64,000 bases of DNA from an uncultured Clostridia bacterium (lineage in GTDB: Bacteria > Bacillota > Clostridia > Oscillospirales > JAAYOS01). Of the stretch, positions 9,619-41,836 are shown one piece after another (position 1 is the first letter of the stretch; each line of letters begins with the position of its first letter). Below the pieces are notes generated by a model. That model was given only the letters and a program-made list of their open reading frames with translations. It was not told the DNA's origin and searched no databases. The translations under genes and the position numbers were made by a program. The stretch is taken from NCBI GenBank assembly GCA_947593925.1, contig CANQDU010000006.1, forward strand, positions 41,938 to 105,937, given 5' to 3'.

Positions 9619-9647
9619 TTGATTTTTGCACCCGATTATGGTACACT
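9619..9647 (+). promoter_or_regulatory. Sigma-70-type promoter TTGATT-17-TACACT with TG extension, upstream of the methyltransferase/nuclease pair
   Basis: TTGATT (9619-9624), a 17-nt spacer, and TGgTACACT (9639-9647). It lies ~50 nt upstream of ATG 9698. Confidence 0.5.
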
Positions 9648-9697
9648 ATTATAAAAGAACACGACAATACATATCGAGAGCCGAAAGGACAGGAACG

Positions 9698-10822: not shown

Positions 10823-10823
10823 G

Positions 10824-11930
10824 ATGCAGATAGAAGAACTGAAAGTCACGGTCGGCGAGGTGTACGAGGGCTATTTCAATGACGCGGAGGAGGGTGTTGT
10901 CGGCTATAACGGACTGCTCGACATCCGCCCAAGGTATCAGCGGGAATTTGTATACAGGGACGCACAACGGGACGAAGTCATCCGCACGGTGATGAAGGGT
11001 CTGCCCCTCAATGTAATCTATTGGTGCAAGGTAAAGAAGGAGAACGGTTCCGAAGGGTTTGAGGTGCTGGACGGCCAACAGCGCACGATCTCCCTGTGCG
11101 AATATGTGGACGGGTCCTTCTCTGTAGACGATAAGTATTTCTACAACCTGCCGTCCGACCGGAAAGAGAAGATTTTGAACTACCCCCTGTTTGTATATGT
11201 CTGCGACGGCTCGGACAGCGAAAAGCTTGATTGGTTCCGCATCATCAATATTGCCGGGGAACAGCTCACCGATCAGGAGCTGCGGAACGCCGTCTATGCC
11301 GGCAGCTGGACTTCCGACGCAAAGCGGTATTTCTCCAAAACCGGGTGCGCCGCGGACACGCTGGCGGGCGATTATCTCAAGGGCGTTTCCATCCGGCAGG
11401 AATATCTCGAAACGGCGATATTTTGGGCGGCAAGCGCCGAGGGAAAGAGCATCGAAGGCTATATGGCGGAGCGTCAGGACCTCCCAAGCGCCGTGCAGCT
11501 CTGGAACTATTTCCGCTCGGTCATTGACTGGGTACAGGCCATTTTCCCGAAGAAGCGCAGGGAGATGAAAGGGCTGCCGTGGGGACTGTTCTATAACCGG
11601 CACGGCAAGCGGACAGACCTTGACCCGCGAAAGCTGGAGATTGAAATTCAGCGGCTGATGGGTGATGAGGACGTAACAAGGAAATCCGGCATCTATGAAT
11701 ATCTGCTGACCGGCGACGAAAGGAAACTGTCGATACGCGCTTTTGACCGGCGGGATGCTCTCGCGGCCTACGAAAAGCAAGGTCACAAATGCGCGATTTG
11801 CGGCGAAGCCTTCGAGTTTGAGGAGATGCACGCCGACCATATCACGCCATGGAGCAGGGGAGGCAAAACGACGCCGGATAACTGCCAGATGCTGTGCCGT
11901 GACTGTAATTTAAAGAAAGGCGCGCAGTAA
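10824..11930 (+). CDS. DUF262 (ParB/GmrSD-like N-terminal domain) plus C-terminal HNH nuclease
   Basis: 368 aa. It has the DUF262 hallmarks [10 protein letters not shown] and LDGQQR. The C-terminal HNH is [44 protein letters not shown]. The ATG lies 1 nt after the methyltransferase stop, with GAGGGAGG embedded in the upstream gene. Confidence 0.8.
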
Positions 11931-11950
11931 AGAAATAGATAAAGTGACGT

Positions 11951-11981
11951 TATAGCATATCGCTCCGCGATATGCTATAAT
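11951..11981 (+). promoter_or_regulatory. Perfect 13-bp-arm palindrome overlapping an extended -10 (TGcTATAAT)
   Basis: The palindrome TATAGCATATCGC-TCC-GCGATATGCTATA spans 11951-11979 and TGCTATAAT spans 11973-11981. It lies 20 nt after the HNH gene stop and 41 nt before ATG 12022. It could be a terminator for the upstream pair, an operator or promoter for the GTPase gene, or both. Confidence 0.5.
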
Positions 11982-12021
11982 ATTTTCAGCATCAATCTTG
12001 TGTGCCGGGAGGTGATACAGC

Positions 12022-14646
12022 ATGGATAATTCAGCGCCGCGCGCCGCGAGGCGCGTCTGCGTCGGACTGCTCGCGCATGTGGACGCGGGCAAGACCACGC
12101 TCAGCGAGGCGCTGCTCTACACGAGCGGCAGCCTGCGGAAGCTGGGGCGCGTCGATCACGGAGATGCGTTCCTCGACAACGACGTGCAGGAGCGCGAGCG
12201 CGGCATCACCATATTCTCAAAGCAGGCCATGCTGTACCTCGAAAACACGGAGATGACGCTTCTCGATACCCCCGGCCACGTCGATTTCTCGGCGGAGATG
12301 GAGCGCACGCTCGGCGTCCTCGACTGCGCGATACTCGTCATCAGCGGCTCGGACGGCGTGCAGGGTCACACGAGGACGCTCTGGCGCCTGCTCGAGCGGT
12401 ACGGCGTGCCGACCTTCATATTCGTAAACAAGATGGACCTCCCCGGCACCGACCGCGGCCGCGTCCTCGAAGGACTGAAGCGCGCGCTCGGCGACGGCTG
12501 TATAGACTTTTCTGCGGACGTCCGCGCGCGGGACGAGGCCGTCGCCATGACGGACGAGGCGGCGCTCGAAGAATTTCTTGCGTCGGGCGTGGTGCCGGAC
12601 GCACGGACGGCGGCGCTCATAGCCGCGCGGAAGGTGTTCCCGTGCTGGTTCGGTTCGGCGCTGAAACTCGAGGGCGTGGAGGAGTTTCTGCGCGGCGTCG
12701 AGACCTACGCGCCCTCGCCGGAGTACCCGGAGGAGTTCGGCGCGAAGGTCTTCAAGGTGTCGCGGGACGCAAAGAACGTCCGCCTCACATGGATGAAGAT
12801 AACCGGCGGAACGCTCCGCGCGAAGGCGCAGCTCTCGCACGGCGAGGGCGAGGACGCATGGGAGGAGAAGGCGGATCAGCTCCGCCTGTACTCCGGTGTG
12901 AAATTTACGACGTTCGAGGAGGCGGAGGCCGGCTCGATAGTCGCCGTGACCGGGCTCACGCGGACGTATCCCGGCGAGGGGCTCGGCGCTGAGCGGGACA
13001 ATCCCGAAGCGGTGCTCGAGCCGGTGCTGAACTACCGGCTGATCCTGCCGGAGGGGACAGACCCGGCGACAGTCCTCCCAAAGCTCAGACAGCTCGAGGA
13101 GGAGGACCCGATGCTCCGGGTGCTCTGGAACGATCAGTGGAAGGAGATAAACGTCCGCCTGATGGGCGAGGTGCAGCTTGAGGTGCTTCAGCGCCTCATC
13201 GCGGACAGGTTCGATATAGAGGCGGACTTCGACACCGGCAGCATCCTCTACAAGGAGACGATAGCGAACCGCGTGGAGGGCGTCGGCCACTTCGAACCGC
13301 TCCGACACTATGCGGAGGTGCATCTTCTGATGGAGCCCGGTCCGCGCGGGAGCGGCGTCCGGGTGGACACCGACTGTCCGCAGAGCCGGCTCGACTTCAG
13401 CTGGCAGAGGCTCATACTCACGCATCTGCTCGAGCGCGAGCACCCCGGCGTGCTCACCGGCTCACCGATAACCGACGTGAAGATAACGCTCGTCGCGGGC
13501 GCGGCGAGCGTCAAGCACACCGAGGGAGGCGACTTCCGTCAGGCGACCTACCGCGCGGTGCGTCAGGGACTCATGCAGGCGGAGAGCGTCCTGCTCGAAC
13601 CGTTCTACGACTTCCGCCTAGAGCTTCCTCCGCAGAATGTCGGCCGCGCCATGACCGACATACAGGGAATGGGCGGCAGTGTGGACGACCCGTCCTCGGA
13701 GGGCGAGATGACCGTCCTCACCGGCTTCGCGCCGGTCGCGGGGCTCCAGGACTACTGGCGCGAGGTGACGGCGTACACGCGCGGCCTCGGGCGGCTCTCC
13801 TGCTCCTTTAGGGGCTACGAGCCGTGCGGGAACGCGGAGGAGGTCGTCGCCGCGATAGGCTACGACCCGGAGCGCGATACCGAAAACCCCGCCGACTCGG
13901 TGTTCTGCGCGCACGGCGCGGGCTTTAACGTCAAGTGGGACAAGGTCCCGGAGTATATGCACATTGAGGGACTGCGCCTTGAGCAGGAGCAGCAGCCCGA
14001 GGAGCAGGCGGCGCCGTCCGCTCCGGCGCACCGGGTGTACGCGACGTCGTTTGAGCAGGACAAGGAGCTGAAGTCCATCTTCGAGAAGACCTACGGCAAG
14101 GTGGAGTACAAGGCGTGGGAACCGGCAAGGAGCCCCGCCCGCACGAGCATCAGCGACTCGTACTCGAAGCGCGGCGTCGGCGCGAGGAAGGCGGAGGGGC
14201 CGGAGTACCTGCTTGTGGACGGCTACAACATCATCTTTGCGTGGGACGAGCTCCGCGAGGTCGCAAAGACGGACATCGCCGCCGCACGGTCGATGCTCGA
14301 GGACATCCTCGCAAACTATCGGGGGTTCCGGAAGTGCGTCGTGATACTCGTCTTTGACGCATACAAGGTGAAGGGCAACCCCGGCTCGGTCGAGAAGCGG
14401 CACGGAATATATATCGTCTACACCAAGGAGGCCGAGACCGCCGACACATATATAGAAAAGACGACCTATCGGATAGCGAAGGACCATCCGGTGCGCGTCG
14501 CCACGTCGGACGGGCTCGAGCAGGTGATAATCCTCGGCCACGGCGCGCTCCGGATAAGCGCGGAGACCTTTCGCGCGGAGGTGGCGGCGACGCAGGTGCG
14601 CATAGACGAGATAATCGCCGAGTACAACCGCAGGGGAAAGAAGTAA
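12022..14646 (+). CDS. TetM/EF-G-family translational GTPase fused to a C-terminal YacP/Rae1-like NYN ribonuclease domain
   Basis: 874 aa. GTPase motifs are G1 AHVDAGKTT, G2 RGITI, G3 DTPGH and G4 NKMD, followed by EF-G-like domains II-V. After a low-complexity linker, the last ~170 aa (EYLLVDGYNIIFAW...VVILVFDAYKVKG...ETADTYIE...VRVATSDGLEQVI..GA.RISA) match the YacP/Rae1 NYN pattern. Confidence 0.8.
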   Translation: MDNSAPRAARRVCVGLLAHVDAGKTTLSEALLYTSGSLRKLGRVDHGDAFLDNDVQERERGITIFSKQAMLYLENTEMTLLDTPGHVDFSAEMERTLGVLDCAILVISGSDGVQGHTRTLWRLLERYGVPTFIFVNKMDLPGTDRGRVLEGLKRALGDGCIDFSADVRARDEAVAMTDEAALEEFLASGVVPDARTAALIAARKVFPCWFGSALKLEGVEEFLRGVETYAPSPEYPEEFGAKVFKVSRDAKNVRLTWMKITGGTLRAKAQLSHGEGEDAWEEKADQLRLYSGVKFTTFEEAEAGSIVAVTGLTRTYPGEGLGAERDNPEAVLEPVLNYRLILPEGTDPATVLPKLRQLEEEDPMLRVLWNDQWKEINVRLMGEVQLEVLQRLIADRFDIEADFDTGSILYKETIANRVEGVGHFEPLRHYAEVHLLMEPGPRGSGVRVDTDCPQSRLDFSWQRLILTHLLEREHPGVLTGSPITDVKITLVAGAASVKHTEGGDFRQATYRAVRQGLMQAESVLLEPFYDFRLELPPQNVGRAMTDIQGMGGSVDDPSSEGEMTVLTGFAPVAGLQDYWREVTAYTRGLGRLSCSFRGYEPCGNAEEVVAAIGYDPERDTENPADSVFCAHGAGFNVKWDKVPEYMHIEGLRLEQEQQPEEQAAPSAPAHRVYATSFEQDKELKSIFEKTYGKVEYKAWEPARSPARTSISDSYSKRGVGARKAEGPEYLLVDGYNIIFAWDELREVAKTDIAAARSMLEDILANYRGFRKCVVILVFDAYKVKGNPGSVEKRHGIYIVYTKEAETADTYIEKTTYRIAKDHPVRVATSDGLEQVIILGHGALRISAETFRAEVAATQVRIDEIIAEYNRRGKK

Positions 14647-16047: not shown

Positions 16048-16896
16048 GCGGGGATTGCATCCCCACCCCTCTAGCGGGGAAGCCCCGCGAGCATTCGCGG
16101 GGTGACCCCCGCGTCCCTAAGTGAGGCAGAGCCTCACCGGTACCATGCGGGGGCTGCGCCCCCGCGCCCCGCGTTACTTTTTGCTTGTGCAAAAAGTAAC
16201 CAAAAAGCACACAAAGGGGAGAAAACCAACGGTTTTCTCCCCTTTGTACCCCTCTTTCCTTAATCGGAAAGGCTCTGCCACGCGGGACACCCGTGCGTAG
16301 CTTAGTACAAGCGTCCACGCTCATACTTTCCACTAGAACCGAAAGTCCCGTTTTCTCGGGATAGCCTCTGCATTACGCTTATAGTGTGAGCGTAGGACCG
16401 GACTTTTGTTTCTACTACGCAGGAACTGTTCGATGTCGTCGAATACAGTGGGAAAGTCGGATATTGTCACCCCGGAAACTCACCCGGTCGGACGATAGAT
16501 TTGTTCGATACGGAGTTATGCCCTGTTATGTGGGTCGTGGTGTTGTGTCTGTATTCAGGAGAGGGATTTTTAAGGGAGAGGGCGGAGCCCTCTCCCTTAA
16601 GCGCGCTTTTTGGATACTTTTTGCGCGAGCAAAAAGTAGCGCAGGGGTGCGGGGCGGCACAGCCCCGCGAAGGTAGTGGTGAGGCTCTGCCTCACTTAGG
16701 GACGCGGGGGTCACCCCCGCGAATGCTCGCGGGGCTTCCCCGCTGGATGGGTGTGGGCTTTGCCCACAGATGGGGTGCGGGGCGGCACAGCCCCGCGAAG
16801 GTAGTGGTGAGGCTCTGCCTCACTTAGGGACGCGGGGGTCACCCCCGCGAATGCTCGCGGGGCTTCCCCGCCGGAGGGGTGGGGCACAAGCCCCAC
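16048..16896 (-). repeat. Composite repeat element, copy A (inverted relative to copies B and C)
   Basis: The left arm (16048-16250) and right arm (16552-16896) are mirror-image arrays of short GC hairpins. The conserved ~300-bp core (16251-16551) aligns by hand with the reverse complement of 23161-23458 and 34400-34697. Confidence 0.85.
16644..16871. repeat. Tandem duplication (two identical 100-bp units, 128-bp period) inside the right arm of copy A
   Basis: The unit GGGGTGCGGGGCGGCACAGCCCCGCGAAGGTAGTGGTGAGGCTCTGCCTCACTTAGGGACGCGGGGGTCACCCCCGCGAATGCTCGCGGGGCTTCCCCGC occurs at 16644-16743 and again at 16772-16871. Confidence 0.9.
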
Positions 16897-22923: not shown

Positions 22924-23747
22924 GGGCAGAGCCCATACCCGAATAGCGGGGAAGCCCCGCGGGTATTCGCGGGGGTGACCCCGCGTCCCTAGGTAGAGCG
23001 GAGCTCTACCGACACATTGCGGGGGCGCTGCCCCCGCACCCCCGGCGGGGCTGTGCCGCCCCGCACCCCTGCATTACTTTTTGCTCGCGCAAAAAGTAAT
23101 CAAAAAGCGCGCTTAAGGGAGAGGGCTTTGCCCTCTCCCTTAAAAATCCCTCTCCCAATACAGACACAACACCATTACCCACATAACAGGGCACACTCTG
23201 TATCCAACAAATCCATCATCCGACTGGGTGAGTTTCTGGGGAGAATATCAAACTTTCCTACTATATCGACGACATCGAACAGTTCCTGCGTAGTAGATAC
23301 AAAAAATTCGGTCCTACGCTCACACTATAAGCGTAATGCAGAGGCTATCCCAAGAAAACGGAACTTTCGGTTCTAGTGGAGAGTATGAGCGTGGACACTG
23401 ATACTAAGCTACGTACGGACGCCCTGCGTGGCAGAGACCTTCCGATTAAGGAAAGAGGGGTACAAAGGGGAGAAAACCTAAGGTTTTCTCCCCTTTGTGT
23501 GCTTTTTGGTTACTTTTTGCACAAGCAAAAAGTAACGCGGGGCGCGGGGATGCAATCCCCGCATGGTGCCGGTAGAGCTCCGCTCTACCAAGGACGCGGG
23601 GCTCGCCCCGCAGATTCCTGCGGGGCTTGCCCCGCAGATTCCTGCGGGGTCTTCCCCGCTATACGGGTGTGGGCTCTGCCCACTTGCCCGCGGGGCTTCC
23701 CGCTGGAGGGGGCACAGCCCCGCAAAAGGGGGCGGGCTTTGCCCGCT
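22924..23747 (+). repeat. Composite repeat element, copy B (same orientation as copy C)
   Basis: Hairpin-array arms are at 22924-23160 and 23459-23747, and the conserved core at 23161-23458. It fills the whole intergenic space between the hydrolase promoter and the stop codon of the large kinase. Confidence 0.85.
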
Positions 23748-23751
23748 GATT

Positions 23752-26700
23752 TTACTGCTCCTTGATGGCGTTTCCTCCCCATATGCCCTCGTTTATGAGC
23801 ACGAAATTGTTGATGCCGCCGGTGAAGATATTTCCGTTGTTGACAACTCTGCCGTAATTTCTCAGCTCGCCGTAAGAGAACTCCGTGCGAGCCTCGTTGG
23901 TAAACGTCGAGCCCGGGTCCAGAACCAGATTTCCGCCCACCCGAAGATGGCTGTGGTTGACAAACGAGCTGCTGATGCTGTAGTCATGACAGATCTCGCC
24001 GTCCAATGCCATATACCCGAAGTTTTCGACCGGAGCCGCCAGATGCGTTTTGGCGTTGAGGCTTACGGAACCGTAGTTTGTAAGCCTGCCCGGCCCCTGC
24101 GTGTCAAGGCCCGCGGCGATCAGCCGTCCCGCTTCCCCGATGACGATGTTGGCATTCGTACTCATGCTCGCGCTCAGGAGTATGCCGCCGCTGTCAACGG
24201 AGATCACGCTTCCGGCCTGCATTTCTACGGGAATAAGGGTATACGCCATAGAATTGTTCGTTACCGTCAACTCGCCGCAAAGGGTGATAAAGTTGCTGTC
24301 GTACAGCCGGGAGTCATCGGTGACGGTTATGGCGCCGCCGTTGAGGCGTATCGGCCCGTTAACTTCGCATGCGGAACCGCCGGAAATGACAAGGTCTCCG
24401 CCGCCCGTCAGATCCAGCCTCGGAACATTCTCATTAGGGTCATCGCCGCAGCCTACGGCCAGGAACGCCCCGTCCGTAATGCGGACTCCGCCGGCTCGGA
24501 CAATTCCTCCGCTGATATCTGCTATGCCTCCCGTGACCGTCAGCGTGCCGGTCACGTTCAGCGTGCCGGCGTAAACAGCGAGATCCGTCTCCACTGTCAG
24601 GTCGCCGTCTATCGTAATATCTCCTGCCACTTGGATGCCGTCGCTGCCGGACGCCATGGCAAGCAGCGTCTCCGCGTCGGTTACGGGAACAACCTCATTC
24701 TCTATCCATCTGCGCACGAACTGCCGGCAGTCCCCGTCCTTGTTGAGCGTGTCCCACGCGGCTGCGGCGTTTCCATCTTCATAGAAGACTATTCCGCCGT
24801 GTATCTGCCCGTCGCCGGAGGTGGCAACGCACCCGGCCGGGTCAGTAATCGTTCCGCTGACGTTTTTGAGATCGCCCGTTACCGTCGTGGGTCCGCAGCT
24901 TTTGATATTTCCGGAGTTCCAGCCGTTGCCAAAGACAGCCGTACCGAAGTTACAAACCGTCGAAGCGCCCTGCAGAGAGAAGCCGCCATTGTCAAAGTCG
25001 CCGCCCAGCTCAAGCTCGCCGATATTAAATACTGTGACGAATGCATCCAGCACGAACGCTAACCCTGCGTCTGCCCGGTGCTCCGGGTTTGCGGACAGCT
25101 TCCCGCAGTTTATCAGAAATCCCGAGTGGATGTTCAGGTTCTGCGGATACATGCCGCCCTGATTGAGTAAAAGGGGCATGTCCCAGAAGTCGATGTTGCC
25201 CATTTCTACTGCGGTTCCGTCGTTGACGGTCCCGCTGTTGACAAACAGGTCGCCTTCAAGCACATGTATTTTTATCGACTCGGATATGACGCCGCGGTTC
25301 ACCAGAGCACGGTTGATGAACAGATTCGCGTCGCCGGTGACGGTCGCGTTCTCGCTGATAAGGAGCGGGCCGCTGAAATAGTAATCACCGCTGAGGCTGA
25401 TGTCGCCGTCGATAGCGACCAGCCTGCCGCTTATCGCGGCGTTCCTGAGCACGCCCTCGTCCGTGACGTAGTCGGCGTTCTCAAAGGCTTTGTCCTCGTC
25501 TAAGACAAAGAAGTTCATATCGTCGGGCATCGGCGAGCCGTCCTCTATGGCAAAGTCGGAGCTGTCCGCGACCCACAGAACGATGCCCTCCGCAATGTAT
25601 CCGTCGCTCGTGCGTGTCAGCTTGCCGCCGTTGCGGGTGCGGATAAACCCACCCTCGCCTTCGACACGGTCGACAAGAAGACCCGACCCCTCGCCGTTCA
25701 CGGTGATAACTCCGCCGTTCAGCCTTAAAACGCCGTAAAATTCCGACTCGGCGGATATCTGCACGTCGCCGGAGGTCACCTCGCATCCGCCGTGTACGAC
25801 GACCGGCTTTGTGATGTTGAGCGACTCGTCCAGACGGAGAGCCTGGTCTCCGCTGTATACCACGGAGGAATACGCATTGTCGTCTGTCAGATACGCGATA
25901 AACTGATCCGCGTCGTAGGCGATAACTTCTCCGCCGTCGTTGCCGTTTGTGCCGCTGTCCGCCTGTTCTTCGCTGACCGGCTTGTGCGTAGGCACCGACG
26001 AATACGTTGACGTGGGCTCGGTAACCGGTGGCGCGCTCGGGCTTGCTTCACCTCTGCTGCCGAGAGTGATGCCGAGCGTCACGCCGAGCACCGCCAGAAC
26101 TGCCGCCGCCGCGGCGCCGATTTTGAAAATGAGATTTTTTCGGGGTTCAGGCGGCGGCACCTGCTTTTGCCATCCGGAGTAAAGCTTGACGTCCGATGTG
26201 ACCGTGAGCTCCTTCAGCGGCTTGGTGCAGGCCGAATCGGTGTACCATCCGAGGAAAGTGTACCCCTTCTTTATCGGAACGGGGAGCTCCGACGCCTTCA
26301 GCACGTCGCCCTTGGCGACAGAAAGCTCCGTATTCTCGTCCCCGCCGGTGAGGTAGACGGACACCACGCCCTCATAGAGCGCCGTGTGGAATTCCTTTGC
26401 GGACTGGAACCGTTCCCTCGGCTGTACCCTCAGAGCGCGCAGTATAGCCTGCTCCTGCCCCTGGGACAGCTCCGCGCCGAGCTTTCTCGGAGGGATAAGC
26501 TCGTCCTGGAAGAGGCGGTCCATGGCCTGAGGAGGCTTCTTGCCGGTGATACAGTAGTAAATGGTCGCCGCGAGCGCGTAGACGTCCGTCCACGCGCCCT
26601 GCGCGCCGCTCGAGGACTGGTACTGCTCCAGCGGCGCATATCCGTGCCGGAGCATGATGGTCATGGTGGCGTCGCCGTCTACCGCCTCGCGGGCGCACCC

Positions 26701-27360
26701 GAAGTCGAGCAGCTTGATTATGCCGTGCTCGAGCATGAGGTTATCCGGGCTGATGTCCCGATGGATAAGCCCCAGATCGTGCATGGCGGAAAGAGAATCA
26801 AAGAGCGGCTCGATTATGTGCAGCAGTTCCCACGCCGGCAATACGCCGCCCCGCTGCTTTGTCAGCTCGCTCAACGTCGTTCCGTCGATGAACTCCATGA
26901 CTATGTAGGCGGTGGAGTTCTCTTCAAAGAAGTCCCTGACGCCGACTATGTTCGGCAGCCGGTCCAGCCTCGCCATGGTTCGGGCCTCCTGCAGGAAGCG
27001 CTGTTTTCCGCGCTCGAAGAAGCTGTTATTCGAGCCCAGAAAGTTATCCACGTTGGTAGATACCGCGCTGTTTCTGGTGGCCTTGTCGGTGGGGAAGTAT
27101 TCCTTTACGGCCACCTTCAGGCCGAGGACCATGTCCCGGCCTATGTAGGTGATGCCGAAGCCGCCCTCTCCGAGGACCCTGCCAAGCATATATCGGTCCC
27201 GGAGCACCGTGCCGGCCGGCAGATGCTTCGGCTGCGCTACGTAGCTTCCCGCCGTGAGCCCGCAGCAGGGACACGGCTTATCGCCCTCCACCTGCGACAT
27301 GCAGTACGGGCAGTATTCCGCCTGCGCAGTGTTTCCGTGCTCTTCTATATCCGGAGTCAT
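23752..27360 (-). CDS. Membrane Ser/Thr protein kinase: N-terminal zinc ribbon, Hanks kinase, Listeria-Bacteroides-repeat-like module, TM, ~770-aa repeat-rich ectodomain
   Basis: 1202 aa. Motifs are CPYC..CPCC, the Gly loop GEGGFGITY, VAVKEY, HRDISPDN, DFG and GYAPLEQY. GYTFLGWYTDS occurs before the TM (IFKIGAAAAAVLAVLGVTLGITLG). The C-terminal part is rich in short G/N/V/T repeats suggesting a beta-helix. Confidence 0.85.
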   Translation of the reverse strand: MTPDIEEHGNTAQAEYCPYCMSQVEGDKPCPCCGLTAGSYVAQPKHLPAGTVLRDRYMLGRVLGEGGFGITYIGRDMVLGLKVAVKEYFPTDKATRNSAVSTNVDNFLGSNNSFFERGKQRFLQEARTMARLDRLPNIVGVRDFFEENSTAYIVMEFIDGTTLSELTKQRGGVLPAWELLHIIEPLFDSLSAMHDLGLIHRDISPDNLMLEHGIIKLLDFGCAREAVDGDATMTIMLRHGYAPLEQYQSSSGAQGAWTDVYALAATIYYCITGKKPPQAMDRLFQDELIPPRKLGAELSQGQEQAILRALRVQPRERFQSAKEFHTALYEGVVSVYLTGGDENTELSVAKGDVLKASELPVPIKKGYTFLGWYTDSACTKPLKELTVTSDVKLYSGWQKQVPPPEPRKNLIFKIGAAAAAVLAVLGVTLGITLGSRGEASPSAPPVTEPTSTYSSVPTHKPVSEEQADSGTNGNDGGEVIAYDADQFIAYLTDDNAYSSVVYSGDQALRLDESLNITKPVVVHGGCEVTSGDVQISAESEFYGVLRLNGGVITVNGEGSGLLVDRVEGEGGFIRTRNGGKLTRTSDGYIAEGIVLWVADSSDFAIEDGSPMPDDMNFFVLDEDKAFENADYVTDEGVLRNAAISGRLVAIDGDISLSGDYYFSGPLLISENATVTGDANLFINRALVNRGVISESIKIHVLEGDLFVNSGTVNDGTAVEMGNIDFWDMPLLLNQGGMYPQNLNIHSGFLINCGKLSANPEHRADAGLAFVLDAFVTVFNIGELELGGDFDNGGFSLQGASTVCNFGTAVFGNGWNSGNIKSCGPTTVTGDLKNVSGTITDPAGCVATSGDGQIHGGIVFYEDGNAAAAWDTLNKDGDCRQFVRRWIENEVVPVTDAETLLAMASGSDGIQVAGDITIDGDLTVETDLAVYAGTLNVTGTLTVTGGIADISGGIVRAGGVRITDGAFLAVGCGDDPNENVPRLDLTGGGDLVISGGSACEVNGPIRLNGGAITVTDDSRLYDSNFITLCGELTVTNNSMAYTLIPVEMQAGSVISVDSGGILLSASMSTNANIVIGEAGRLIAAGLDTQGPGRLTNYGSVSLNAKTHLAAPVENFGYMALDGEICHDYSISSSFVNHSHLRVGGNLVLDPGSTFTNEARTEFSYGELRNYGRVVNNGNIFTGGINNFVLINEGIWGGNAIKEQ

Positions 27361-27520
27361 AAAGTGCTTCGTCCTCCCTTTCTGGTGAATTCAGACGCCG
27401 TGCGGCGGCGTCCGGCCCGGAGAAGGCCCCGCCGGACATGCGGATGCGTGCCGGCAGATCGTCTGTCCGGGCGCGGAGCGCCCGCCGGTCTTCCGTTTAC
27501 GGCATGCCGGATACCGCGCC

Positions 27521-28606
27521 TCAGGACGTCGCTATAAGTCCGATGGCGGCAGCAAGGACCGCCACGGCCGCTATCACGCCTGCGATCAACTGTCCACGGT
27601 ACTTTACGTACCACGGCACCGGAGGCGGAGGCGGGGGCGGAGCTATTGCGCTGAGAAGGGCATTTTTGAACTCGGCCATGGTCTGATACCGGTCCGTGGG
27701 ACGTATGGCCAGCGCCTTGCGGAACACGGCCTTCTGTGCCTCCGTAAGGCAGTCGGGAAGGAACAGAGGATCCGGTTGACCTTGGGTAGTTGCGGAAAGG
27801 CGCTCTGAGCAGTCAGTAGGAGCGCTGCCGGTCAGGCAGAACAGCATAGACGCCGCCAGAGTGTAGACGTCGGAGTAGAAGCCCGCGGGTCCCAAGACGG
27901 TTGTGGCCTGCTCGATGGGCGCGTATCCGGGCTTGAAGAAGCCCGTCATAGCTTTGTCTACCGGCCTTGCGGAGCCGAAATCCGTCAGGCACAGCTCGCC
28001 GTTCGGCATGAGCATGATGTTGTCAGGGCATATATCCCTGTGTACCATGCCTTTGCTGTGTATCCACGTTATGCCGTCCATAAGAGGAAGCATCTTCGGG
28101 AAGAGCTCCTGCGGCGCCATTTTTCCGTCCGGGCGGGCGCGGACTGCCTTGTAGAGCGGCTGCCCGGAGATAAACCCCAGGATCAGATACGCCGTTCCGT
28201 TGGCCTCCAGATAGTCCACGCCCTTGACGATGCTTGCCGGGCCGTTGTCAAGCTTTGCGACCATCTTGGCCTCCTTGAGGAAGCTCATGCGCCCTTGGTT
28301 ATAGGCGTCTTCCGTACGGTTTGCGGCGTACACGGTAACGCCGTCCTTGTCACGCTCCGCCCAGCGGTGATTGCCCCTTGAGGGAAAGTATTCCTTGATG
28401 GCAACTTCCTGCTTGGTCCTTTTATCGGTTCCCCGGTAGGTTATACCGAAGCCGCCCTGACCGAGGACGCCGCCGACCCAGTATGTCGCGTCTCCGCTGC
28501 CGATGACCGTTCCGACAGGGAGAGCGGGCGGCAGATTTGCTCCGCAGTGGGGACAGACCGGCTGAGCAGGAGTGTCAAACTCGCGGCCGCATTTCGGACA
28601 TTTCAT
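27521..28606 (-). CDS. Tail-anchored Ser/Thr protein kinase with N-terminal zinc ribbon
   Basis: 361 aa. Motifs are CPKCG...CPHCG, GQGGFGITY, VAIKEY, HRDICPDN, DFG and GYAPIEQ, followed by a PPPPPPVPW linker and a C-terminal TM (LIAGVIAAVAVLAAAIGLIA). Confidence 0.85.
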   Translation of the reverse strand: MKCPKCGREFDTPAQPVCPHCGANLPPALPVGTVIGSGDATYWVGGVLGQGGFGITYRGTDKRTKQEVAIKEYFPSRGNHRWAERDKDGVTVYAANRTEDAYNQGRMSFLKEAKMVAKLDNGPASIVKGVDYLEANGTAYLILGFISGQPLYKAVRARPDGKMAPQELFPKMLPLMDGITWIHSKGMVHRDICPDNIMLMPNGELCLTDFGSARPVDKAMTGFFKPGYAPIEQATTVLGPAGFYSDVYTLAASMLFCLTGSAPTDCSERLSATTQGQPDPLFLPDCLTEAQKAVFRKALAIRPTDRYQTMAEFKNALLSAIAPPPPPPPVPWYVKYRGQLIAGVIAAVAVLAAAIGLIATS

Positions 28607-28609
28607 TTT

Positions 28610-29986
28610 TTATACGCCCCCCTTTGTGCTCACGGTGAATGACTGATTGTTCGAGCCCAGAGCTATCACGTCGCCTACATGCAGTACGGTCGGAACGTTC
28701 GGCGGGATGCGCTGTCCGTTCACGTAGGTGCCGTAGGTCGAGCCGAGATCCGTAACGGTCAGAGACCCGGAGTTCAGCGAGACCGCCGCGTGAACGTGGC
28801 TGACGCCGGGCGTCCTGTCTGGGAATTGGAGACCGTTCGGGCCGGGATCCACGCCTATTCGGACGTACTGCCCCTCATTCACGGCGAAGCGCCTTCCCGC
28901 GAAAACGCCGGCGGTGCCCTGCAGGCGGACGGCTCCGATGATGACCGTTGGGTCGCCGGCCGGCTTATCCTTTCCGCCCTTATCTTTCTTGGTAAGGACG
29001 ACGATAAGCACCACGGCTCCGGCGAGAACCGCGGCGCCTGCGGCGATTATCACTACCCAAAGCCACGTAGAGTCATGGTAGATGTCGTACTTTATGTGCA
29101 GATCATCAAGGATGTCCGGCAGGAAATCTGCCTCGATGGAGAAGAAGTAGTTCTGGCCGTCGCTCTGAGTTCCCCAGGTGTTGATACCCACTACGGCGCC
29201 GTGCTTGTCAATAAGCGGGCCGCCGGAGTTTCCGTAGTTCATGGACGCGGTATGCTGGATAACTCTTACACGCGCGCCGTTGTTATCCGTCGTGGTGGAG
29301 TGAAGGCTGACGGTTCCGTTGGTGACGGTGACACGTTCCACGCTTCCGTAATAGTTTTGAAATCCGTAGCTGTCGCTGACGAAATCCTCCGTGGCTGAGG
29401 GGTATCCCAGCGCCCAGACCTCTTCTCCGGACTCTATCGAATCGTTCGGATCATGCAGCGGCAGCGCCTTGCGTCCCGCGACCGGCTCCGCGGCCTTTAT
29501 CACGGCAAGGTCCGGCTCGTCAAGTTCGGACTTGTACAGGAGATCGCAGGGTACGGCGCGGCTTGTATCTATCTCATTGGTGGCGCTCATTGCAAAGTCG
29601 TCCAACAACAGGTAAATGCGGGATACCGAGGCGGTATAGTAGCATGCGTTACCGTAAATATCATAGTCAAGATCCGCTATATCAGTCATCAGATGACGGT
29701 TGGTCACGAAATACTGCGTCTCCTTGCCGGTCTTTCCGATGCCGGTTCCGCTGCCTAAAGCCATTAATCTCTCATTTACTTGCGTCGGATCCTCTTCGAC
29801 ACCCACAATATTGTCATAGTCGTCAAAGATAAGCGGGTAATAACTCTCTATGTACACGACGGCAACGCGCACAACGCCGTTTCGGTTGGCGCTGCCCGTA
29901 TTGCCGGAGGAACAGCCGGCGAGAGCGACAGTTATCATGCACAGCGCAAGGATTGTGCAAATGACCCTCTTTATATCGGTTTTCAT
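28610..29986 (-). CDS. Lipoprotein-anchored trypsin-like (S1) serine protease - TM - cytoplasmic FHA domain fusion
   Basis: 458 aa. It has a lipobox (VALAGCSS) and a protease region with the Ser motif GNSGGPLIDKHGAVVGINTWG. A TM (WLWVVIIAAGAAVLAGAVVLIVVL) is followed by a C-terminal FHA (GR..., VSHVHAAV, TDLGSTYGTYVNG). The stop lies 3 nt before the next gene's ATG. Confidence 0.8.
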   Translation of the reverse strand: MKTDIKRVICTILALCMITVALAGCSSGNTGSANRNGVVRVAVVYIESYYPLIFDDYDNIVGVEEDPTQVNERLMALGSGTGIGKTGKETQYFVTNRHLMTDIADLDYDIYGNACYYTASVSRIYLLLDDFAMSATNEIDTSRAVPCDLLYKSELDEPDLAVIKAAEPVAGRKALPLHDPNDSIESGEEVWALGYPSATEDFVSDSYGFQNYYGSVERVTVTNGTVSLHSTTTDNNGARVRVIQHTASMNYGNSGGPLIDKHGAVVGINTWGTQSDGQNYFFSIEADFLPDILDDLHIKYDIYHDSTWLWVVIIAAGAAVLAGAVVLIVVLTKKDKGGKDKPAGDPTVIIGAVRLQGTAGVFAGRRFAVNEGQYVRIGVDPGPNGLQFPDRTPGVSHVHAAVSLNSGSLTVTDLGSTYGTYVNGQRIPPNVPTVLHVGDVIALGSNNQSFTVSTKGGV

Positions 29987-30001
29987 ATCCTTTCCCCTTT
30001 C

Positions 30002-30715
30002 TTATATGTCTATCCAGACTGCGGCGGCGGAGTTGTTGTCGTTGCCCTCGCTTACCTTTGAGGCAAGACGTTTCCTCATCCTTGCTATCCAGTCCTCCGG
30101 GTCCTTTGCCGCGCGGAGATCCTTTGCCATCTCTTCCTCCAGCACGTACTCCCAGAACCCGTCGGTGCACAGCAGAAACGCCGTTCTCCCCGGCAGAAGG
30201 TCGCAGGAGCCGGTCTCCACCTTCAGATCCGTGTCCTGCCCCAGGGCGCGGAGCACCCTGTTGCGGTCGGGGTGAAAGCGCAGTTGATCAGGGGTTATCT
30301 GGCCGAGCATCACGCCGATCTGAGCGGAGGAGTGGTCCGTCGTCTGGAACTCCAGCTTGCCGTCGCGGAACCGATAGAGCCGCGAGTCGCCGTCGTGAGC
30401 CCAGACGGCGCGCCCAGGCATGGCCGTCAAAGCCACCACGGTGGTCTTCATGCTGCACTGGGGCGTCTGAATGGCAAGAACGGCTTCGTTGGCGGCGAGG
30501 ACAAGGTTTGTAAGAACGTCCTTGTCCACCTGACCCGCCCAGCGGCCGCAGATAAGCTCGGCCGCCCGGGCGGAGGCCAGTTCGCCGCCGCCGTGGCCGC
30601 CGAGTCCGTCCGCCACCACCGCGCAGATCCTTTCCTCGCCGTGTCTGACCGCCATTACGGTATCTTCGTTGTTGGCACGACCTCCGACATTTGAATATGT
30701 GGCGATTTTGAACAT
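30002..30715 (-). CDS. PP2C-family Ser/Thr phosphatase (soluble)
   Basis: 237 aa. Motifs are NEDT, VADGLGGHGGGELAS and LCTDGFWEYV. The ATG overlaps the upstream stop (TAATG). Confidence 0.85.
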   Translation of the reverse strand: MFKIATYSNVGGRANNEDTVMAVRHGEERICAVVADGLGGHGGGELASARAAELICGRWAGQVDKDVLTNLVLAANEAVLAIQTPQCSMKTTVVALTAMPGRAVWAHDGDSRLYRFRDGKLEFQTTDHSSAQIGVMLGQITPDQLRFHPDRNRVLRALGQDTDLKVETGSCDLLPGRTAFLLCTDGFWEYVLEEEMAKDLRAAKDPEDWIARMRKRLASKVSEGNDNNSAAAVWIDI

Positions 30716-31980
30716 TATTTTCTCCTTTCGGACTTTCGTGAGCTGTCTTCCACCGAAAGTATGACGGCGGTATAGTTGTCCTGATTTGTATAGCCCTTGG
30801 CGGCCACCGCTTTCTTGACGGCATCCGCCGGCGCGCTGTCCGAGAGTGCCGCTGCGAGCTCACTGTCAGTCAAAGCGTTATACACTCCGTCCGTCATGAG
30901 CACCAGCTTATCCCCGGGGTGAAGGTCTATGGGCGACGTGGGCATATCGACATACTTTATATCTCCCATGCCCAGATAGCTGGTAAGTCCGCCCTTCTTC
31001 GGGTGCTTGTAGACGTCGCTTATCTGCGCGGAGCCGCTGACGGCCTGAGCCGCGAGCTCGTATTTGTAGGTGTGTTCGCGGTTGAGCTTATACAGGTCTC
31101 CGTTTCTGTACAGGCATATACGGCTGTCTCCCACGCTGACAAAGGAGAACTTCATGTCGCGCAGAAGACCCATCACAATTGTCGAACCGCTCCGCTTGAG
31201 GCCGCCCGGCCCGAGCAGACCGTCTACGGCCGATACGGCTTTCTTCAGAAGCTCCAGAAGTACGTTCTCGGCGGAGCCGGAGACCGTGAAGAAGCCGTTG
31301 AGCGCCGCGGAAGCGGCGGCCTGACTGACCTGATCCCCGTGCTCGAGACCGCCCATGCCGTCGGCCACCACCGCCAAAACGCCCTGCTTGTCGACAAATT
31401 CGGTGGGTGACACACCGAAGCAGTCCTGCTGATCTTTTCTTGCGCCCTGTCCGTGGAGCTTGTAGGCTTTGACCGTTATTTTTCCGGTCGGTGTCTTGGC
31501 CTTGCGGCTCTTTCTGAGGGCTCGCCGTATCAGCGAGACGATGAGCGCCGCGAGAAGTGCCGCCGTCACGCCGGCCCCGGCGCATATTCCTCCGAAGGCC
31601 GCCGGATGCTGTGCGGCAAAGTCAATGATCTGCCCGGCAAACGTCTGCGTGCCGGTCGTATTTTCGGACTCATTGCCGTCTGCATCTCCGGTTTCTTCGA
31701 CGGCGCCGTCGGTGTCGCCGGTAGCATTTTCGAGCGCCCCGGCGTCTGCGGAGCTCTCCGCACCGGGCGGAGCTGCCGGCGCGGTCGGAGGAGCATCCGA
31801 CGCGGCTGGCGGAGTCACCGGCGCGGTCGGAACGGCATCCGGCACGTCGGGCAGAGCTGCCGGCACGGTCGGAACGGCGTCCGGCACGTCGGGCAGAGCT
31901 GCCGGTGCGGTCGGAATGACATCCGGCAGGTCGGGAGAGGGCGATACGTCCGGGAACCGGGAACTATCCATATTGCTCAT
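30715..31980 (-). CDS. PP2C-family Ser/Thr phosphatase with Pro-rich repeat N-terminus and one TM
   Basis: I chose the start at ATG 31980 (MSNMDSS), which overlaps the upstream stop (ATGA). It has a TM (ICAGAGVTAALLAALIVSLI) and the PP2C motifs VADGMGGLEHGDQVS and LMTDGVYNAL. Confidence 0.8.
   Translation of the reverse strand: MSNMDSSRFPDVSPSPDLPDVIPTAPAALPDVPDAVPTVPAALPDVPDAVPTAPVTPPAASDAPPTAPAAPPGAESSADAGALENATGDTDGAVEETGDADGNESENTTGTQTFAGQIIDFAAQHPAAFGGICAGAGVTAALLAALIVSLIRRALRKSRKAKTPTGKITVKAYKLHGQGARKDQQDCFGVSPTEFVDKQGVLAVVADGMGGLEHGDQVSQAAASAALNGFFTVSGSAENVLLELLKKAVSAVDGLLGPGGLKRSGSTIVMGLLRDMKFSFVSVGDSRICLYRNGDLYKLNREHTYKYELAAQAVSGSAQISDVYKHPKKGGLTSYLGMGDIKYVDMPTSPIDLHPGDKLVLMTDGVYNALTDSELAAALSDSAPADAVKKAVAAKGYTNQDNYTAVILSVEDSSRKSERRK
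31825..31935. repeat. 42-bp tandem repeat (about 2.6 units) encoding the DAVPTxPAALPDVP repeat of the membrane PP2C
   Basis: Units are at 31825-31866 and 31867-31908, with a partial unit at 31909-31935. The two full units differ at only a few positions. Confidence 0.85.
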
Positions 31981-32612
31981 TTGCCCTGTTCTCCCGTCTC
32001 CCAATTGAACTTCTCACAGCAAAGCGGGACAAATATAAGCGTGGTGGCGGAGCCGATGGAGATGGTGTCGTAGGCGTGGATCTCAACGGTGTTGAGAACG
32101 GTCTTGTTGTTGACCTTCACAAGGTTCCGTCCGCCGGCAGGCCCGAAGTAGTAGGCAAGCTCGCTGCTGTCAAAAGCTATCATGGCGTGACTCTCCCGGG
32201 AAATCTGGTCGTCGCCGTGGATGCATATATCGCCGGTGGTGCGGCCTATGTAGTTGTATCCGGCATGGATGCGGTAGTCCTCGCCGTAGTTGGGACCCTT
32301 GATGCATACCAGCCATCCGACCACGGGGTCGCTGCCGCCGACGGGACCGGCGATCTCCGTTTCCACAAATCCCTCGCCGGTTCTGCCGCCGGGGGCGAAG
32401 GTGATGGACTCGGTGGCGCCGGGGACGCCGCCGATGGGCTCGGTGCCGGTCATACCGCCGATGGGTTCGGTGACGCCGGGAACGCCGCCGTTGGACTCGA
32501 CAGACGGGGCCGAACCGGCCGATTTTGCTCCGCATCTGGGGCAAACCTTGTATTTCGCTGTATCGAAGGGATGGCCGTTGGTGCAGTAGGTCATTGTGGT
32601 TTTGGCTTCCAT
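31977..32612 (-). CDS. Zinc-ribbon plus FHA domain protein
   Basis: I chose the start at ATG 32612 (MEAKTTMTYCTNGHPF..CPRCG), preceded by GGGAGGAAAA. It has a Gly/Thr/Pro repeat linker (GVPGVTEPIGGMTGTEPIGGVPGATE) and a C-terminal FHA (IGR..., ISRESHAMIAF, LVKVNN). Confidence 0.8.
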   Translation of the reverse strand: MEAKTTMTYCTNGHPFDTAKYKVCPRCGAKSAGSAPSVESNGGVPGVTEPIGGMTGTEPIGGVPGATESITFAPGGRTGEGFVETEIAGPVGGSDPVVGWLVCIKGPNYGEDYRIHAGYNYIGRTTGDICIHGDDQISRESHAMIAFDSSELAYYFGPAGGRNLVKVNNKTVLNTVEIHAYDTISIGSATTLIFVPLCCEKFNWETGEQGK

Positions 32613-32860
32613 GTTATTTTCCTCCCAATAATTCGTTTTGCCCATTTCGGGCAATTATACAAATTAAATTCTACCACACCTATAACATTTGCAGTCCAAT
32701 CCATTTCCGTCGAAAAAACAGACGCGGAGACAGCCACGGCGCGTCGGCCGGGCTGTCCCCGCAAAAATGTCAAAATCAAAAAACGCCGCGTTGTTCGGGA
32801 GCGGTCCCGCAGTCATTTTCATCCTCGCCGGAAGAGCGGAGCCGCTCTCCCGGTGTATAT

Positions 32861-34100: not shown

Positions 34101-34995
34101 GCGGGGCCGTGAGCGCCGCGTCCCTAGGTGAGGCAGAGCCTCACCGACACCTTCGCGGGGCTTTGCCGCCCCGCACCCATCTAGCGGGGAAGCCCCGCAG
34201 GAATCTGCGGGGCGAGCCCCGCGTCCCTGTTACGGGGTAAAACCCCGTATGAATATGCGGAACCTGGCGGTTCCGAGACCTTCGCGGGGCTGTGCCGCCC
34301 CGCACCCCTGCGTTACTTTTTGCTCGCGCAAAAAGTAACCAAAAAGCGCGCTTAAGGGAGAGGGCTCCGCCCTCTCCCTTAAAAATCCCTCTCCCAATAC
34401 AGACACACAACCGCAACCCTCATAGCAGGACCCACTCTGTATCCAACAAATCTATCGTCCCACCGGGTGAGTTTCTGGGGAGAACATCAAACTTTCCAAC
34501 CGTATTCGACGACATCGAACAGTTCCTGCGTAGTAGAAATAAAAATCCGGTCCTACGCTCACACTATAAGCATAATGCAGAGGCTATCCCGAGAAAACGG
34601 AGCTTTCGGTTCTAGAAGAAAGTATGAGCGGGAAAGCCTGTGCTAAGCTACGGACGGACATCCCACGTAGCAGAGACTTTCCGATTAAGGAAAGAGGGTA
34701 CAAAGGGGAGAAAACCGTGGTTTTCTCCCCTTTGTGTGCTTTTTGGTTACTTTTTGCACAAGCAAAAAGTAACGCGGGGCGTGGGGATGCAATCCCCGCA
34801 TGGCGCCGGTAGAGCTCCGCTCTACCAAGGACGCGGGGCTCGCCCCGCGGATGCCCGCGGGGTCTGCCCCGCTAGGGGGTGGGGGGCACATGCCCCACAT
34901 CTGCCCGTGAGGCTCTGCCTCACTTCAGGACGCGGGGTCTCGCCCCGCGAATACTCGCGGGGCTTCCCCGTTATACGGGTGCGGGGCAATGCCAT
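34101..34995 (+). repeat. Composite repeat element, copy C (same orientation as copy B)
   Basis: Hairpin-array arms are at 34101-34399 and 34698-34995, and the conserved core at 34400-34697. It lies between the island promoter and the rhaB promoter region. Confidence 0.85.
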
Positions 34996-39035: not shown

Positions 39036-39113
39036 GCGGGGCGACCCCGCGTCCCTGAGTGAGTCAGAGCCTCACTTATGGACGCGGGGTCGCCCCGCGA
39101 AGCTTTGCTTCGC
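39036..39113. repeat. Solo palindromic unit of the GC-hairpin repeat family
   Basis: GCGGGGCGACCCCGC-GTCCCTGAGTGAG-TCAGAG-CCTCACTTATGGAC-GCGGGGTCGCCCCGC, followed by the GCGAAGC-TTT-GCTTCGC hairpin. The modules are the same as in the arms of copies A-C. Confidence 0.8.
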
Positions 39114-39337: not shown

Positions 39338-39559
39338 CGGACGGCGTTTGCTCCCGTCCCTTCAGAGAGCCGGAGGGACGGGAGGAGGCGCTTTCCTCAT
39401 TAGCGGCTCCGTCTCCTTTCAGAGTCTGCCCGGACAGCGCGTGGCTGCGGCTTGCCGTTGCCGCCGCCCCCACTGTTCGGGCGGAAAGAAAAAAGGAACG
39501 AATGCCGCAGGAAAGTCCCCACAATACTTCAAACAGAATGTGAAAGGAGTACAATTACT

Positions 39560-41758: not shown

Positions 41759-41836
41759 ATGGACAAAAAAGTTAAATTGTCGGAACACCTGACGACGATT
41801 TGCTTGTATGTATACGAAATGAGGTGTTATCTATGA
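41759..41836 (+). CDS. Candidate 25-codon upstream ORF translationally coupled to the 1762-aa SLH protein gene
   Basis: AAAGGAG lies 7 nt upstream of ATG 41759. The product is MDKKVKLSEHLTTICLYVYEMRCYL. Its TGA (41834-41836) overlaps the ATG (41833-41835) of the large gene as ATGA. There is no homology evidence. Confidence 0.3.
   Translation: MDKKVKLSEHLTTICLYVYEMRCYL

Follow-up and report, generated by a model that had tools for sequence, protein, structure and literature searches.

Bacterial MITEs (miniature inverted-repeat transposable elements) together with the clusters of repetitive extragenic palindromic (REP) sequences and bacterial interspersed mosaic elements (BIMEs) are the closest known kinds of element to a dispersed intergenic repeat of ~470 bp that occurs three times in a 64,000-nucleotide stretch of DNA (hereafter the window) from an uncultured Clostridia bacterium of the Oscillospirales (assembly GCA_947593925.1, contig CANQDU010000006.1, positions 41,938 to 105,937). 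With moderate confidence, we read this repeat as a MITE-like, non-autonomous cassette whose ends are outward-facing terminators or 3'-end structures. Its core is read as the lineage-specific, non-coding interior of the cassette, and the copies in the window as members without cargo genes.

Like the cassette, MITEs such as Correia/NEMIS of Neisseria, ERIC/IRU, RUP, bcr1 and Nezha are small and non-coding, carry terminal inverted repeats and occur as tens of intergenic copies. Bacterial MITEs can give terminators and RNA hairpins to neighboring genes. The cassette differs in being larger (~470 bp, or ~780 bp with its outer hairpins) and in ending in nested hairpin arrays of 56-150 nt, whereas MITEs end in 20-30-bp transposase sites. 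Its interior is asymmetric and constrained site by site, and it has relatives with small regulator genes. With the REP, BIME and REPIN systems associated with RAYT it shares GC-rich extragenic palindromes in inverted pairs, clusters and tandem duplications, along with conservation driven by hairpins. However, REPs are 20-40 nt and REPINs ~100 nt long, neither has a counterpart of the 300-nt non-palindromic core or of the palindrome with A/T runs, and no RAYT gene was seen in the window. Intrinsic terminators, including bidirectional ones, have the GC-rich perfect hairpin followed by a T-run that is present at each cassette end, but in the cassette a short segment lies ahead of the T-run, a second hairpin comes after it, and two terminators stand 300 nt apart in place of one shared hairpin.

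Anatomy of the repeat unit

A search of the whole window for repeats found direct repeats at 23045-23266/34284-34505 (91%) and 23302-23499/34541-34738 (79%), and inverted repeats at 16126-16407/23302-23583 (282 nt, 90%) and 16250-16471/34477-34698 (222 nt, 88%). A preliminary description of the window had reported three copies of a ~300-bp core, at 23161-23458 (copy A), 34400-34697 (copy B) and, in reverse complement, 16251-16551 (copy C). These copies are real, with matches far longer than chance. Besides a three-way alignment of the window copies we made an alignment of 15 copies (A2), over columns 75-400 of which core identity is 89% for A and C, 86% for A and B, and 85% for B and C. In a window of ~60% G+C, all three copies are intergenic and flanked by unrelated genes, the pairs being GH4/glycosyltransferase, bile-salt hydrolase (BSH)/Ser-Thr kinase and an unknown gene/FGGY kinase.

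The limits first given to the repeat were too narrow. The unit is ~470 bp (about 23071-23542 in copy A) with the ~300-bp core as its interior, and the strong covarying structure is found in the end modules that flank those 300 bp. The suggestion that the core belongs to a mobile element holds as far as anatomy goes, since the unit is multi-copy, has inverted ends and lacks a transposase; mobility itself is a matter of inference, discussed below. The ends of the unit are imperfect 56-nt inverted arms that are 82-86% complementary in the repeat search. Read outward, each consists of a GC hairpin, a short segment of 4-6 nt that we call X, the motif T5GG and a 28-bp palindrome. Within the window, this palindrome occurs only at the six element ends. 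The inverted symmetry of copy A runs on into REP-like GC-rich hairpins, to about 22924-23700 (~780 bp). The parts of the three copies are as follows, features that carry no strand being marked unstranded.

22924-23070, unstranded: copy A, left outer cluster of REP-like GC-rich hairpins, inverted relative to 23543-23700
23073-23100, unstranded: copy A, 28-bp palindrome at the left terminus, ATTAC-T5-GC-TCGC-GC-A5-GTAAT, with covariation between copies in the outer pairs of the stem
23101-23106, minus strand: copy A, left A5 run
23107-23112, minus strand: copy A, left X, GCGCGC, complementary to the left palindrome loop; the minus strand reads GCGCGC-T5-GG
23113-23143, minus strand: copy A, left GC hairpin, TTAAGGGAGAGGGC-TTT-GCCCTCTCCCTTAA; perfect stem in all copies
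23147-23462, plus strand: copy A, non-coding core
23266-23297, unstranded: longest invariant block of the core (32 nt), TCGACGACATCGAACAGTTCCTGCGTAGTAGA, identical in the 15 aligned and two truncated copies
23463-23497, plus strand: copy A, right GC hairpin, CAAAGGGGAGAAAACC-TAA-GGTTTTCTCCCCTTTG
23497-23502, plus strand: copy A, right X, GTGTGC, complementary to GCACA in the right palindrome loop
23503-23509, plus strand: copy A, right T5GG
23509-23536, unstranded: copy A, 28-bp palindrome at the right terminus, GTTAC-T5-GC-ACAA-GC-A5-GTAAC, with no difference between the 13/13 copies that reach that far
23543-23700, unstranded: copy A, right outer cluster of REP-like GC-rich hairpins, with a 24-nt tandem repeat (2.7 copies) at 23596-23659
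about 34310-34779, plus strand: copy B, whole unit, with palindromes at 34312-34339 and 34746-34773, left GC hairpin at ~34352-34382, core at ~34386-34700 and right GC hairpin at ~34701-34734
about 16167-16642, minus strand: copy C, whole unit, with right-end palindrome at 16173-16200, core at ~16248-16566 and left-end palindrome at 16613-16640

A consensus-based scan identified terminator-like sites that point outward at both ends of the unit: on the minus strand at the left hairpin (site 23144-23112, followed by CGCGCTTTTT) and on the plus strand at the right hairpin (site 23460-23500, followed by GCTTTTTGGT). Both ends have the GC-rich stem-loop and U-tract of an intrinsic terminator, and termination activity is predicted from these sequence features. 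Covariation in A2 is seen in the left palindrome at columns 3-31 (11 GC, 2 AU) and 4-30 (UA/UG/CG), and the right hairpin has one compensatory change from A-U to U-A, in L020 (pair 403-433). The segment TCCCTCTCC (23147-23155) is able to pair with GGAAAGAGGGG (23451-23461).

REP-like GC-rich hairpins (GCGGGG-N-CCCCGC, GTGAGGCAGAGCCTCAC, GGTAGAGCGGAGCTCTACC) were identified at 16644-16885, 23596-23659, 34102-34232, 34823-34987 and 39059-39099. Around the cassettes they form tandem duplications (a 128-nt unit in 1.9 copies and a 24-nt unit in 2.7 copies), and the one at 39059 is solitary. The core does not belong to this class of palindrome.

Copies in other genomes

We scanned a genome collection with an invariant 21-mer of the core. 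Real hits were found only in two rabbit-gut metagenome-assembled genomes (MAGs) named 'uncultured Clostridia bacterium', Lapin-022__bin13 and Lapin-004__bin9; the other seven hits, one match each in phyla with no relation to these, are due to chance. Comparison of the unit with the hit loci by BLAST identified at least 14 further copies, 86-90% identical to copy A and with differing flanks. Two of the 14 represent a 5'-truncated copy at one orthologous site in both MAGs (L008:3844-4197 and L011:938-1241). It begins at …CAAACTTTCCC, 40-50 nt past the stop codon of a gene for a 325-residue lipoprotein-like protein. We rejected an ωRNA-like transposase tail here because that gene is lipoprotein-like and not a transposase. 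A different repeated module (…GGGCATTGTCCGCGAAGCGGACAATGC…) is present on the left side of four MAG copies.

Copy C lies at an orthologous site in the window, in Lapin-004 bin9 (L002) and in Lapin-022 bin13 (L006), and the left end of copy A was also found, at the end of contig L006. Genes flanking orthologous copies are 91-97% identical. Contigs encoding FGGY and BSH proteins identical to those of the window stop within the repeat. No match to the element was found in plasmid and phage databases by blastn in distant mode, and scans of viral contigs with the core 21-mer, the palindrome, the end of a related family (F2, below) and an F2 motif gave zero or chance matches. A literature search gave nothing relevant to the cassette.

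Homologs of the GH4 gene place the wider group among Clostridia/Ruminococcaceae MAGs. Two 85%-identical GH4 relatives (L143:6323-6732 and L144:1862-2413) have a downstream spacer with a promoter-like TTGACA-N17-TATAAT followed by a tRNA-like sequence, which is unrelated to the cassette; the L143 spacer also has a duplicated segment.

Relatives that share the ends

A palindrome scan of metagenomes gave at least 120 loci, and none of those listed holds a homolog of the core. Of 131 palindromes among the matches listed, 102 have an A5/T5 run no more than 3 nt away on one side and not on the other, and the full design of the ends recurs at many of the loci. We refer to the window elements as family F1. 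A second family, F2, comprises elements of ~400-460 nt (L078, L095, L096, L121, L141, L117 and L065) with the same order of parts. In each of the window copies, the left ~100 nt are matched by an F2 profile (E ~1e-15). The match spans the palindrome, A5, X, the hairpin, the C-rich tract and ACGACACA. The 3' domain of F2 has a small covarying hairpin (23-31, GC to CG in four sequences) and a terminator; we dropped it as a candidate structured RNA, RNAalifold giving only -6 kcal/mol. A termite-gut family, F3, has solo left modules adjoining genes, and both L089 and a second element of L121 have the left module at both ends, as ~150-nt inverted repeats.

Some relatives carry cargo between the ends (L121:2870-3930, L044:617-1621, L095:4056-4920, L072:2912-3776, L134:271-1088 and L099:1-566). 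The cargo genes encode CopG/RHH_1, RHH_5 or TraY-like and HTH_3 proteins, along with helical proteins of 83-108 residues that belong to no known family. The cargo is lower in GC than the ends, at 38-50% in five of the six relatives and 61% in L134, the ends being GC-rich as judged by eye. In every case that could be oriented, the genes are arranged divergently and face the end modules, into which they read.

A probable MITE-like cassette

The unit is shorter than ~700 bp and without a transposase gene, is bounded by terminal inverted repeats and occurs as dispersed copies (three in the window and 14 in the MAGs), as is expected of a MITE. Dispersal to unrelated sites implies past mobility. We infer this mobility, the terminator or 3'-end function of the ends and any RNA-level role of the interior.

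Read outward on either strand, each end would present a G-rich tract, a perfect GC hairpin of 14-16 bp, X, a U-run and a 28-nt hairpin whose 5' arm is U-rich and whose 3' arm is A-rich. From this order on both strands, we propose that transcripts crossing or leaving the cassette would end in a terminator-like, exonuclease-resistant 3' structure. A crossing transcript would, in either direction, meet a GC hairpin with a U-run and then a second stable structure at the far end. Copy C would end both of its convergent neighbors, GH4 and glycosyltransferase, and copy A would end the kinase operon ahead of the BSH gene; in the relatives with cargo, the small regulator genes would be transcribed outward into the ends. 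If this is true, some uncultured gut Clostridia have a family of intergenic cassettes that supply many loci with ready-made stops for transcription and, in the case of relatives, with small regulator genes. Such cassettes would shape operon boundaries and the antisense overlap of neighboring genes, and would explain the assembly breaks at these sites.

Several observations weigh against a MITE-like cassette with terminating ends. Unlike in MITEs, neither a parent insertion sequence nor an insertion polymorphism was found, and no target-site duplication was recognized by eye at the outer boundary of copy A or at the aligned copy boundaries, where no systematic search was made and the true terminus is uncertain, because the flanks also consist of repeats. 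An empty site was likewise not seen, the GH4 homologs at 83-86% identity being non-syntenic. No transposase or recombinase was identified among the ~28 window open reading frames (ORFs) scanned or next to any related element, and no autonomous insertion sequence with the same ends was found among the listed metagenome loci (at least 120), where related end pairs enclose at most ~1 kb. Three genomes have two insertions in common, copies A and C, as fixed elements. Identity is no higher between orthologous copies (86-88%) than between paralogs (81-97%); gene conversion or saturation of free sites must also contribute. Together, these two findings point less to an active family than to one that is old, domesticated or prone to conversion. 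At the ends, X puts 2-6 nt between hairpin and U-run, which weakens a classical intrinsic terminator, and the counts of mismatches in the hairpins (6 G·T and 8 A·C) carry no signal of strand or of RNA. A single promoter-like site was found, a weak one (9/12 matches, copy A, minus strand), and its -35 element is not conserved in the other copies. The 3' half of F1 may not be common to the F2 relatives, a profile search of doubtful effectiveness having found no homology to the 3' domain of F2, and the motifs that the 3' halves of F1 and F2 share by eye (AAGC[AT][TA]CG, GTGGCAGAGA, CCGATT) may be due to chance.

Assignment of a strand from the types of hairpin mismatch was dropped, 6 versus 8 being uninformative.

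The non-coding interior

No shared ORF appeared when the consensus and each copy were translated in six frames, Pfam gave no signal in any frame of the consensus, and the translation of the copy B ORF (34292-34612, from the left end through the conserved block) has no homolog among 5.8 billion proteins. As the preliminary description had it, reading frames are broken by indels (of 1, 2 and 11 nt), and no stop-free frame is common to 15-17 copies. That it did not recognize the core as any named RNA family also agrees with our results: Rfam gave no match at gathering score in the window or in five related loci, and E-value mode gave only hairpin noise across the window and relatives. A pseudogene of a known protein family was dropped for want of a Pfam signal, and a tRNA or tmRNA origin was rejected, none being present in the window.

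Three stems had been put forward within the core. GCGTAG...CTACGC is indeed unchanged in 15/15 aligned copies, with a variable segment between its arms. TCGA-CGACA-TCGA is invariant, but the longer TTCGA-CGACA-TCGAA is not, because copy A is missing the first T and its stem is one pair shorter. The exchange of CCGG for CTGG is correct in substance but was assigned to the wrong copies: C has CCGG/CCGG, A has CTGG/CTGG and B has CCGG/CTGG. The 3' half of this putative stem is deleted in two other copies (L007 and L020). That differences were reported to concentrate in loops is mostly the effect of a small number of long invariant blocks, which are uninformative on pairing either way.

Taken whole, the 411-nt unit has a much more stable fold than its shuffles (z -9.25 plus, -6.04 minus), owing to the end hairpins. 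For the core by itself, there is no gain in stability over shuffles (z -1.05 plus, +0.71 minus). RNAalifold gave the same consensus energy on the two strands (-58.5 and -58.7) with a slightly unfavorable covariation term (+0.61). Across 71 pairs in the core, 97.5% of cells are paired, compared with 97.2% in shuffles, and 48/500, 130/500 and 49/500 shuffles reach the observed values. Only two of the 71 pairs change on both sides, in an alignment that is 90% identical and therefore has low power to detect covariation. The earlier proposal that the core is a structured RNA is thus not borne out: a compactly folded RNA is not supported, and no sign of a new ribozyme- or riboswitch-like fold was found.

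The leading alternative to the cassette reading is that the core is a stand-alone family of small RNAs (sRNAs), a ~300-nt structured plus-strand RNA that ends at the right hairpin and uses a C-rich 5' seed against Shine-Dalgarno sequences in the manner of RsaE/RoxS, with the ends merely insulating it. A strong terminator-like site follows the core directly on the plus strand, and the first ~80 nt of the core are C-rich and G-poor on that strand (C16/G1 in 23141-23180). At predicted core pairs, the variants of high frequency allow G-U pairing on the plus strand and those of A·C type mostly occur as singletons, a pattern that could be explained by transitions alone. One small hairpin shows compensatory changes (columns 353-355/361-363), and orthologous copies are under purifying constraint, site by site. 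Against an sRNA, an equally good terminator-like site at the left end faces the opposite way, there is neither a conserved promoter nor an Rfam match, and a predicted helix is partly deleted in two copies. Since the fold of the core (z -1.05), the strand-equal consensus energy and the shuffle-level covariation also speak against it, we consider an sRNA family unlikely. In the cassette reading, the C-rich 5' part might suit a Rho-loading site or a C-rich sRNA seed. We also tried the idea of an attenuator, in which the C-rich tract would imitate the hairpin's 3' arm, and rejected it: the scores for a copy's own arm (5.8) and for cross comparisons (5.2) indicate common C-richness only.

The end modules

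The GC hairpins of different families have wholly different sequences and keep 13-16 perfect pairs. Many compensatory variants are found in the stem of the palindrome (such as TTTTTGC/GCAAAAA, TTTTGG/CCAAAA, TTTTCC/GGAAAA, TTTTCTC/GAGAAAA and TTTTTCG/CGAAAAA). Such compensation is the mark of a hairpin in single-stranded nucleic acid and not of a protein site on duplex DNA.

This bears on a second alternative, in which the 28-bp palindromes are core sites of a site-specific recombinase and the cassette is a module like those of pdif/Xer or of invertons, moved or inverted in trans. We take the geometry of the palindrome (11-6-11 or 12-4-12 bp, adding to 28 bp) to fit Xer/dif and resolvase site I, which favors such a module, and the sites are inverted at the two ends. 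The pdif (Xer) modules of Acinetobacter plasmids and invertons are also small, with inverted 28-bp palindromic sites, and the regulator or toxin-antitoxin-like cargo of the relatives is as in pdif modules. Differing outer modules abut the palindrome in a junction-like way. However, the stem covaries for complementarity as a hairpin and keeps no fixed half-site sequence of the XerC/XerD kind, and the left and right central regions differ (CTCGCG versus CTTGTG). Moreover, the copies are chromosomal and dispersed, no recombinase was identified among the window ORFs scanned, and no inversion was seen, the orientation being the same in three genomes at two loci. We regard this explanation as improbable. 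An integron attC cassette (R'' RYYYAAC ... R' GTTRRRY, arrayed) was rejected, as GTTACTT misfits GTTRRRY and the copies are dispersed, not arrayed.

Within the cassette reading, the end modules may hold further structure. X is complementary to the loop of the palindrome: over 47 distinct loops the mean Watson-Crick run is 3.53, compared with 2.46 +/- 0.13 when permuted, and the maximum of 5000 permutations is 2.91 (p<2e-4). Copy A has GCGCG/CGCGC at its left end and TGTGC/GCACA at its right end. Along the strand the parts are ordered X, arm, X', arm, as in an H-type pseudoknot, and each of the two crossing helices, X with loop and the palindrome stem, is backed by covariation. The length of the T-run tracks that of the A/T run in the stem (U4/U4, U5/U5, U6/U6 and U7/U7; Spearman 0.47), although independent lineages are few and a stem run of 5 was imposed by the search pattern. 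These features suggest that the T-run after X is a candidate loop 1 lying along the A·U run of stem 2, in a putative U·A-U triple-helix pseudoknot. Loop 3 of the proposed pseudoknot has only ~3 nt.

The ends presumably resemble the U·A-U H-type pseudoknots of telomerase RNA, SAM-II and preQ1-II and the triple helices of ENE/MALAT1. They would share with these RNAs the order X, U-run, U-rich arm, X', A-rich arm and the position on the 3' side of a transcript. They differ in having no Rfam match to any of them, no ligand pocket or poly(A) and the short loop 3, and their fold is predicted. We know of no bacterial ENE. Tentatively, and as a minor possibility, the end module may be an undescribed bacterial RNA motif, a triple-stabilized H-type pseudoknot that, as a counterpart of ENE/MALAT1, caps transcripts at their 3' ends as they leave a mobile mini-cassette, with the cores as the bodies of two outward-reading non-coding transcripts. 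If so, it would be a new and widespread bacterial RNA 3'-end structure with a clear sequence signature.

Motifs with this end-module architecture are present both among GC-rich Clostridia and among AT-rich bacteria of the gut and the environment. An AT-rich organism (L026, L040, L043, L066, L076 and others; SAMEA104315433/26 co-assemblies) has the palindrome, A5 and X in many copies per contig, sometimes 130 nt apart, with the module sequence …GCAAAAG-TTTTTGC-TACTTTTTGC-TTTT-GCAAAAAGTAG…. The end module therefore spans large phylogenetic or compositional distances. A variant of the palindrome with U7/A7, CTTCTTTTTTT-CTCCTCAAG-AAAAAAAGAAG (L069/L119:385-430; L106), has a loop-complementary X and T/A runs on both sides, forming a two-sided module.

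Constraint on the interior

We classed the 326 core columns by the 12 copies outside the orthologous trio, giving 189 invariant and 137 variable columns. Among the copy C orthologs of the three genomes, the invariant class diverges by 3.7-4.2% and the variable class by 24-28%, while four-fold degenerate sites of six flanking genes diverge by 8-17%. The invariant columns are thus ~3-fold slower than four-fold sites, and the core is under purifying constraint, site by site, in orthologous copies. The presence of fixed, constrained orthologous copies suggests domestication or selection in situ. As part of the MITE-like cassette, the interior would be kept by site-specific purifying selection for a cis-acting or RNA-sequence role, not for a compact fold.

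The core might instead be neutral junk, recently amplified selfish DNA in which the conserved blocks are due only to young age or gene conversion. Divergence is as great among orthologs as among paralogs, which gene conversion could bring about, and assemblies break inside the element, as they would for any repeat. Nevertheless, the two shared insertions are older than the split of the three genomes, the same columns are slow in independent comparisons, at the rates given above, and the 32-nt block is invariant in 17 copies, all of which makes neutral junk a doubtful explanation with a low probability.

The remaining alternative, that the core is decayed protein-coding cargo or a type I toxin-antitoxin locus with a small toxin ORF and an antisense RNA between terminators, is very improbable: the outward terminators at both ends fit convergent or antisense transcription, small genes are present in the relatives, the repeats of LDR and Sib/QUAD are also conserved, intergenic, 300-550 bp long, few in copies and bounded by terminators, and the invariant block holds AGGA-N8-ATG on the minus strand, heading a 20-residue peptide in six copies and a 21-residue one in another, starting MSS, but across copies these peptides range from 4 to 127 residues, are alike only in the first ~10 and are not hydrophobic, so that the conserved small hydrophobic ORF of LDR and Sib/QUAD is lacking, and the absence of a common frame, of Pfam signal in six frames and of a homolog of the copy B ORF stands against any protein.

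Other features of the window

Adjoining copy A is a signaling cluster on the minus strand (23752-32654) that encodes two kinases, one a Ser/Thr kinase of 1202 residues that contains a Flg_new repeat and the other bearing a zinc ribbon, as well as a trypsin-like protease that has an FHA domain and two PP2C phosphatases. A PP2C phosphatase gene of the cluster contains a 42-nt repeat (4.2 copies) at 31764-31939.

A low-GC patch at 9626-11930 (GC 0.49 in 10001-12000) is a restriction-modification or defense islet that was likely acquired horizontally. It encodes an EcoRI-type adenine methyltransferase (Pfam E 9e-143; GC content at third codon positions 0.43), directly followed by a GmrSD_N + HNH endonuclease. 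The plus-strand gene at 12022-14646 encodes an 874-residue protein in which a complete EF-G/Tet(M)-like GTPase (GTP_EFTU, EFG_III, IV and C) is fused to a C-terminal YacP-like NYN nuclease domain, an unusual combination. Two FtsX/MacB-type permease genes, at 202-2467 and 3434-5653 (638 and 658 residues), are diverged tandem paralogs with 71-74% DNA identity. Two giant ORFs of 1773 and 3322 residues were identified on the plus strand at 41800-58359, the first with Listeria-Bacteroides (Flg_new) repeats. These are probably cell-surface proteins, because they are preceded by a protein with an SLH domain (39452-41659).

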